NCBI RefSeq assembly: GCF_028368995.1
Contig: NZ_JAQNDL010000001.1
Span: 4,064,001-4,128,000, forward strand
Direction: 5' to 3'
Length of the DNA stretch: 64,000 nt
DNA from: Nannocystis bainbridge
GTDB taxonomy: Bacteria; Myxococcota_A; Polyangia; Nannocystales; Nannocystaceae
Shown piece after piece: positions 30,911-31,523 of the stretch. The position numbers and the translations under genes are program-made. Numbering within the stretch: the stretch's first letter is position 1; each line of letters starts with the position of its first letter. The notes under the pieces were generated by a model, which ran no database searches, had not been told where the DNA came from, and saw only the letters and a list, made by a program, of their open reading frames with translations.

Positions 30911-30962
30911 GAGCATGTCCGACGGGGCATGTCGCCGAGGACATCCCCTGTGGGCCACGTCA
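30911..30962. repeat. 14-bp-phased CATG array (4 units, last two degenerate)
   Basis: CATG 30914, CATG 30928, CATC 30942, CACG 30956; between convergent uvrA and hcp. Confidence 0.8.
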
Positions 30963-31523
30963 CCGCTTGACGTTGTGCTTCTCCCAGTCATCCGAGGCGG
31001 TGACGTTGCCGTCGCGCCAGATCCACTCGATCTTCTGGTAGGTCAGGCTGACCTCCTGCACGACCTGGTCGTTCGGCCCCGGCAGCAGGCGGATCGCGGC
31101 GATGCTGGCGTTCGTCAGCTTGACCGTGTACGTCAGCGTCTCCGCCCCCTTGGCGTCCGGCCCGAACACGTTGAGCTCGACCGACGTCAGCAGCTCGTTG
31201 TCGAGGAACGCCTGCTGGATCGTCGGCGTCGCCTTGCCCAGCTCCATCGTCAACACCAGCGGCTTGTGCTGGCGCCTGCCGGTCGCCAGGCCCGAGGCCG
31301 CGTCGCGCGGCATGCTGACCTCGTGGTCCAGCGAGAGGATCGCGATCATGTTCTCGCGGCCCTTCTTCACCACGCTGCCCTTGATGTCCCCGACCTTCTG
31401 GCCCTTCATCCGCAGGTAGGCGTTGAGCGCCGCCTCGGCCTCCGCGAACGGGGCGAGCGCCACCCCCGACACACACGCCACCAGCGCCAGCGAACGCAAC
31501 AGCTGCTTGCTCGACATCGACAT
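30960..31523 (-). CDS. hcp: Hcp/TssD type VI secretion tube-family protein with N-terminal signal peptide
   Basis: [73 protein letters not shown] upstream. Confidence 0.88.

Follow-up and report, generated by a model that had tools for sequence, protein, structure and literature searches.

The window that we analysed is a 64-kb stretch of an 11.05-Mb Nannocystis genome assembled in five contigs. On its minus strand it carries, at positions 30960 to 31523, a coding sequence for a signal-peptide-bearing paralogue of Hcp/TssD that is 187 amino acids long and ends in a stop codon at 30960 to 30962. Translation of the minus strand bore out both the coordinates and the protein that an earlier note on this DNA had given. 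The gene converges on a uvrA-like gene (27532 to 30909, plus strand) and diverges from an open reading frame for a 326-amino-acid, lipoprotein-like product (31868 to 32848, plus strand). The UvrA-like protein (1125 amino acids) has a low-complexity N-terminal extension of about 180 residues that is rich in Ala, Thr, Ser, and Lys; its first Pfam domain match begins at approximately residue 186, and the same start is found in the Nannocystis loci L009 to L011. In the 326-amino-acid open reading frame, the residues after an internal Met resemble a lipoprotein leader (…ALASSGC); the product had no Pfam match and no homologue among the open reading frames called within 8 kb of Hcp in other Nannocystis loci. 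A scan of positions 30850 to 31900 returned no promoter-like sites and one terminator-like site (31871 to 31887, minus strand), which lies upstream of the Hcp gene and is not informative.

The sequence CGCGCAGGAGCACG-ATG is invariant in four Nannocystis genomes (the window and L009, L010, and L011, whose orthologues are 86 to 90% identical to the window protein), and the sequence further upstream diverges; the ATG at 31523 was therefore taken as the start. The AGGAG ribosome-binding site that had been noted before this extended start is present at 31528 to 31532 on the minus strand, 4 nt 5' of the ATG (31521 to 31523), and is kept in all four genomes. A longer, GTG-started open reading frame reaching 31592 exists mechanically in the list of open reading frames, and a second ATG is codon 3, from which the signal peptide would be unchanged. 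A start downstream of the hydrophobic segment, which the earlier note had itself raised as a possible objection, was not borne out at the canonical position or at the next in-frame ATG: the codons before A32 are GAG GCC GAG GCG, with no start codon among them, so that the canonical Hcp start is impossible in this gene, and the next in-frame ATG encodes M39, where initiation would remove the first beta-strand. With no canonical start codon, a conserved ribosome-binding site, and equivalent signals in homologues, the sequence comparisons indicate that the signal is not an artefact of start-codon choice.

Four sequencing runs were compared with the locus at a likeness of at least 88%. No run contained as much as half of the words sampled from the locus, the best share being 0.13. 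The RNA-labelled run X6 yielded one 393-nt contig over 31108 to 31499 with 29 differences, spanning most of the signal-peptide codons, and the RNA-labelled run X7 yielded three contigs of 83 to 112 nt over 30971 to 31148. These contigs are sequences of relatives, in which DNA carry-over is possible, and they offer at most a weak hint of transcription, one that does not extend to the Nannocystis strain analysed here.

The mature part of the protein (residues 32 to 187; positions 30963 to 31430, minus strand) begins ALNAYL and is a true and complete Hcp/TssD domain, as delimited by alignments, the AF2 model, Foldseek, and a three-copy model. PF05638 (Pfam T6SS_HCP) matched residues 36 to 169 with an E value of 2.6e-27 and 96.1 bits against a cut-off of 23.5, and TIGR03344 (NCBIfam TssD) matched residues 32 to 182 with an E value of 3.9e-32 and 111.5 bits against a cut-off of 58.9. 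The best solved relatives by sequence were P. aeruginosa Hcp3 (3he1, 1.9e-19), V. cholerae Hcp (5mxn), and EAEC Hcp1 (4hkh). The AF2 model, built on a 113-row alignment, had a mean pLDDT of 87.6, with residues 32 to 180 above 90, and the top matches that Foldseek listed against the PDB were all Hcp proteins, with 4hkh_A first (E value, 9.5e-17; target-normalised TM score, 0.91), followed by 6a2v, 5mxn, and 3he1. The original assignment to Hcp/TssD thus stood for both family models and for the fold, a beta-barrel flanked by one helix. In the alignments, the mature domain begins exactly where signal-less relatives begin after their Met. Evolved Hcp proteins with a C-terminal effector domain go by the name Hcp-ET; no such fused effector domain is present in the window protein, which ends 7 residues past the Hcp domain in a tail of residues 181 to 187. 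One match in our search (P0122) appeared as a fused longer form and was rejected as an over-called upstream open reading frame with the same signal peptide inside.

Codons 1 to 31 (31431 to 31523, minus strand) encode a predicted, tripartite Sec/SPase I signal peptide, with an n-region containing K6 and R10, a hydrophobic h-region, and the c-region AEAEA, whose last three residues (A-E-A) occupy positions -3 to -1 directly before A32. With our own rule-based script, the h-region had a hydropathy of 2.37 over 9 residues and the n-region had two K/R and no D/E residues; AF2 placed residues 1 to 31 in a low-confidence helix (pLDDT, 55 to 59). By these rules, all three regions of the Sec signal peptide that had been proposed, and its AxA site before the Hcp N terminus, are found. 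No RR occurs in residues 1 to 31. To see the leader in its family, we used a set of 475 homologous proteins, of which the best 120 were listed; one of these is the window's own product, and all counts refer to the query plus the other 119. By our rule, a leader counted as a signal peptide if it had K or R in the n-region, then a hydrophobic h-region, and finally a small-x-small motif abutting the Hcp N terminus. Such a signal was found in 78 of the 120 (77 listed homologues and the query), with the motif in the same register and small residues at -3 and -1 in all 78, and an RR pattern was present in only 1 of these 78 listed proteins. Forty of the 120 begin MALNAYL with no leader, and the other two listed proteins have over-called starts, in that their extension is not a signal and an internal Met marks the place where Hcp canonically begins. 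The idea that homologues might lack the extension therefore did not hold for most of those listed, and 71 of the signal-bearing proteins belong to one clade. Among Nannocystis orthologues, codons 1 to 31 evolve as coding sequence, with mostly synonymous change; between the window and L011, for example, they differ by five synonymous changes and one nonsynonymous change (19 and 25, respectively, in the mature part).

A three-copy model of residues 32 to 187 scored 0.50 (0.43, 0.53, and 0.50 in the individual runs) versus 0.00 for the best of three controls; in the calibration of this complex score, from which a three-copy case differs, 20 of 30 proteins with structures solved as pairs reached the mark, compared with 1 of 23 solved as single chains. 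Contacts agreed to at least 88%, and partner pLDDT values were at least 81. In the modelled interface, helix 99-109 and strand 140-148 pack against residues 32 to 35 and 64 to 71 of the next copy, and residues 152 to 154 also contact the neighbouring subunit. This arrangement matches the helix-to-strand inter-subunit contact described for EAEC Hcp1 (PMC3925092). The ring-type interface of Hcp is thus predicted to be kept, with the reservation that the score may stem from Hcp rings whose structures are already solved, which makes it a sign of likeness and not proof. The part that residues 32 to 35 play in the modelled interface may explain why cleavage is confined to the position just before A32.

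We built a tree from the mature domain only, with the signal peptide excluded, using the 120 proteins and the cluster Hcp of the source genome as the outgroup. The 71 signal-bearing proteins mentioned above formed one clade with an SH-aLRT value of 98, and the remaining 7 fell in three or four other places on the tree, so that gain or loss of the signal occurred more than once. By parsimony, the signal state changed 4 times, and at least 2 of these changes are forced by supported branches. The main signal-bearing clade is approximately 50 to 55% identical to signal-less Hcps, some of which come from complete T6SS clusters. Among nine loci of signal-less relatives that we scanned for context, three were in or by T6SS genes and the other six were orphan. 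An Eisenbacteria MAG (L056) has a full cluster, TssM-TssA-TssB-TssC-Hcp-TssE-TssF..ClpV-VgrG; in a Polyangiaceae MAG (L049), the signal-less Hcp adjoins ClpV, FHA, TssF, and TssG, and in an Acidobacteriota MAG (L081), it adjoins FHA proteins and TssA. When the Hcps of these three loci were added to the tree, they fell among the signal-less proteins on the opposite side of the 98-supported branch, and the main signal-bearing clade of the enlarged tree also took in the genome loci L013 to L018. Since cluster Hcps lie just across the supported branch, the signal-bearing clade derives from genuine tube proteins. Two further signal-less loci had features of their own: Polyangium fumosum carries two signal-less Hcp genes in tandem (L075, 9998 to 10501 and 10598 to 11110, plus strand) with no T6SS gene within 7 kb, and a Fibrobacteria MAG carries an orphan signal-less Hcp about 2 kb downstream of Wadjet-type genes for an SbcC/JetC-like ATPase and JetD (L019, 3242 to 7893, plus strand).

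Conserved columns are nearly all common to signal-bearing and signal-less proteins, including the whole H67-P88 loop, and the differences that we observed were in another loop, the tail, and the charge. Column comparison shows that the main signal-bearing clade has a shorter, divergent loop at residues 148 to 156 (31056 to 31082, minus strand), at which signal-less relatives conserve M-P-N-N...Y-E-E. Among the listed homologues, the median mature length was 155 residues for signal-bearing and 165.5 for signal-less proteins, and the median pI was 8.86 versus 7.03. The window protein ends in the basic tail EKHNVKR (residues 181 to 187; 30963 to 30983, minus strand), and 71 of the 78 listed signal-bearing proteins, but only 2 of the 42 signal-less ones, have K or R among their last three residues, the tail of the former being sometimes long and rich in Pro and Lys. 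These are features of the clade: supported branches give only two independent contrasts, too few for a sign test (P = 1) to bear on whether tail or loop changed together with the signal. In EAEC Hcp1, the C terminus (position 158) and loop L4,5 have been placed at the hexamer-hexamer interface (PMC3925092). By alignment to EAEC Hcp1, the tail of the window protein would therefore leave the ring at a stacking face. The changes of loop, tail, and pI in the clade are consistent with a new setting.

The gene had been described as an orphan Hcp with no other T6SS gene in the window. Within the 64 kb this stood, with no matches to Pfam T6SS families among the 43 other open reading frames called, but genome-wide it did not, as T6SS loci are present on contigs C2 and C5 together with a second Hcp. 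On C2, FHA, kinase, TssC, TssB, signal-less Hcp, and ClpV genes lie near 1.01 Mb, and TssA, TssM, TssL, TssK, TssJ, and FHA genes lie near 1.08 Mb; C5 has a third T6SS set with a fused TssB-TssC gene. In total, the source genome has three TssC-type sheath genes and two PF05638 matches, and the window gene is megabases or contigs distant from the T6SS loci, which are on other contigs. The fused gene on C5 (L091, 9399 to 11984, minus strand) is an 861-amino-acid open reading frame that matches VipA/TssB at residues 49 to 113 and VipB/TssC at residues 441 to 858, an apparent sheath fusion. Its locus is divergent and T6SS-like, with TssM-like, DotU, and TssF genes, and no PF05638 match was found there.

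Matches with an E value of 1e-20 or better occurred in 14 of the 73 genomes of the order, including the source genome, and in 7 of 10 other genomes of the genus. Synteny of neighbours (uvrA, pdxA, DUF3108, and a Ser/Thr kinase) was seen only within Nannocystis, and BLASTP clustering of open reading frames within 8 kb of 17 candidate loci found no conserved partner gene common to the diverged signal-bearing loci. The search that the earlier note had proposed, for signal-bearing homologues and their neighbourhoods, thus returned many of the former (78 of the 120 listed) and no shared neighbour at diverged loci, and gene context accordingly points to no function, partner, or cargo. We also examined the genomes of five organisms that carry signal-bearing relatives. 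TssC is present in three of them, all Myxococcota MAGs, and in the other two, an Armatimonadetes MAG and Roseateles paludis, whose completeness is not given, neither TssC nor TssF was matched. These two genomes have three Hcp-family genes each, all behind signal peptides, and their Hcps represent other, separately derived signal-bearing lineages outside the main clade. The Armatimonadetes genes (L041, 10007 to 10588; L093, 543 to 1262, minus strand; L094, 516 to 1142, minus strand) have signal-peptide-like leaders. One of the Roseateles genes (L092, 1625 to 2902, plus strand) encodes 425 amino acids comprising a signal peptide, two Hcp-family domains, and a C-terminal PEP-CTERM sorting domain, the last matched by TIGR02595 with 25.7 bits against a cut-off of 16 and by PF07589 with 21.3 bits.

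The sequence itself shows a true Hcp domain preceded by a conserved Sec-type signal, in a gene that stands alone. The pathway is inferred, and we put at roughly 0.78 the probability that the window protein is exported by Sec, cleaved after A31, assembled into rings outside the cytoplasm, and active independently of T6SS. The precursor would be exported unfolded via SecYEG, and signal peptidase I would cut after A-E-A31, giving a mature N terminus that is the first residue of canonical Hcp. The mature protein would then fold in the periplasm and assemble into Hcp-type rings, with the free N terminus contributing to the contact between subunits; this would account for the locked register of the cleavage site. 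The rings would act in the envelope or, after further release, extracellularly, independently of a T6SS sheath and baseplate. The earlier suggestion of action outside T6SS gains support from the stand-alone gene, from the signal-bearing relatives in the two genomes that gave no TssC or TssF match, and from the predicted signal peptide, which is incompatible with cytoplasmic tube assembly. Against independence, hardly any of the residues conserved in T6SS-cluster Hcps has been lost from the mature domain, which retains the whole H67-P88 loop, and the protein could still meet T6SS partners. Because three of the five hosts checked, as well as the source genome, have T6SS genes, the case for independence of the main clade is made by the signal peptide and gene context and not by absence of the machine. 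The most likely role, by analogy with canonical Hcp as a chaperone and receptor and considering also the basic tail, would be that of a binding or scaffolding ring, associated with the envelope or matrix, for envelope or secreted partners; the tail and the high pI would help it to attach to anionic polymers of the envelope or matrix.

Several other explanations were weighed against the exported ring. The leader of the window protein contains a lipobox-like L-V-A-C17, at which SPase II could cut to leave the Hcp domain tethered to the membrane by a 15-residue linker instead of forming a soluble ring. The pattern [LVI][ASTVI][GAS]C was matched by the window leader and those of 15 other listed homologues (16 of 78), and a Cys occurs somewhere in the leader of 53 of the 78, but the lipobox is missing in 62 and the AxA site precedes ALNAYL in all 78, which is why processing by SPase I is the better reading. 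Moreover, the hydrophobic stretch before C17 has only about 6 residues, few for a lipoprotein h-region, the would-be linker, which is hydrophobic, coincides with the conserved h/c-region, and a retained linker would need to be accommodated at the predicted interface of residues 32 to 35; we consider the lipoprotein form very unlikely. Our estimate is lower still for a protein that remains a T6SS tube component or cargo, its leader either unused, owing to an internal GTG start such as V21, or not recognised by Sec, and serving a T6SS locus, for instance one without a recognisable Hcp. The genome does have more TssC-type sheath genes (three) than PF05638 matches (two), in-frame GTG codons do occur within the leader, and the mature domain is 50 to 55% identical to cluster-encoded Hcps with conserved loops kept. 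However, AGGAG precedes the first ATG in four genomes, a K/R-then-hydrophobic pattern in residues 1 to 20 recurs in the 78 diverged proteins listed, which is unexpected for untranslated DNA, and changes in codons 1 to 31 are synonymous-biased. Initiation at V21 would still add 11 residues to the N terminus that forms part of the interface in the three-copy model, the listed signal-less relatives all start exactly M-ALNAYL, and the gene lies megabases or contigs from the T6SS loci.

A version of the exported-ring reading is that resident periplasmic Hcp rings act as decoys that capture the Hcp-dependent effectors of competitors and so provide general immunity. The periplasm is where antibacterial T6SS effectors arrive, and a protein predicted to reside there, with a conserved lumen-forming Hcp core, a scattered, accessory-like occurrence (14 of the 73 genomes in the order, counting the source genome), and a signal acquired repeatedly (4 changes by parsimony, at least 2 on supported branches), would fit such a role. 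Binding between Hcp and effectors is, however, known to be specific to cognate pairs, no immunity-like or effector genes were linked among the window open reading frames or in the neighbour clustering of the 17 loci, and the basic C-terminal tail is left unexplained, so we give decoys a very small chance. The broadest form of the exported-ring idea would make Sec-exported Hcp rings a distinct, recurrent extracytoplasmic class with several origins from T6SS tubes; in Nannocystaceae, periplasmic or extracellular rings or short tubes would sequester the T6SS effectors of rivals, as a general anti-T6SS immunity, or carry small proteins that the cell itself secretes, with the basic tails anchoring them to anionic polymers. 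In this full extent we regard it as unlikely.

Hcp is the textbook case of secretion that needs no signal peptide, and the standard way to assay T6SS activity is to look for Hcp released into the medium. Signal-bearing proteins are named plainly TssD or Hcp in the databases, and a literature search covering titles and abstract openings, with subscription journals mostly outside its scope, found no paper on a signal-bearing Hcp. What appears to be new here, judged from the sequences, is that the clade nests next to cluster-encoded tube proteins, that gain or loss of the signal happened more than once, that the clade has loop and tail changes of its own, and that it coexists with a complete T6SS in one genome. 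If this conserved clade is truly routed through Sec, the Hcp ring fold has been put to a second use beyond the cytoplasm, an Hcp gene is not a reliable marker of T6SS, and rings derived from tail tubes may have further envelope or extracellular functions. Stable exported rings might also serve as a useful scaffold.

Compared with the canonical Hcps of T6SS tubes (EAEC Hcp1, 4HKH; V. cholerae, 5MXN; P. aeruginosa Hcp3, 3HE1), the window protein has the same family and fold at 28 to 31% identity, its mature N terminus lies at the same residue, and its predicted helix-to-strand inter-subunit interface is the one described for EAEC Hcp1 (PMC3925092); in contrast to them, it has a 31-residue Sec-type signal peptide and no T6SS cluster around its gene. 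The cluster Hcp of the source genome (L002, 1471 to 1974; 167 amino acids), which is encoded beside TssB, TssC, and ClpV within a T6SS locus, belongs to the same family but is only 32% identical and has no signal peptide. Closer to the window protein are the signal-less Hcps of the ALNAYLKLKGQK subfamily from T6SS clusters (L056, L049, and L081), which are 50 to 52% identical over residues 32 to 181 and have nearly all conserved columns in common with it, including H67-P88, but start M-ALNAYL without a leader and end in uncharged tails such as ESPVV. The window protein departs from its signal-less relatives in the shorter loop at residues 148 to 156, the basic tail at its C terminus, and a higher pI. 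The Roseateles paludis protein encoded at L092 likewise combines a signal peptide with Hcp-family sequence, in a host with no TssC or TssF match, and it differs from the window protein in having two Hcp domains and a C-terminal PEP-CTERM sorting domain, in being far more diverged, and in its position outside the Nannocystis clade.
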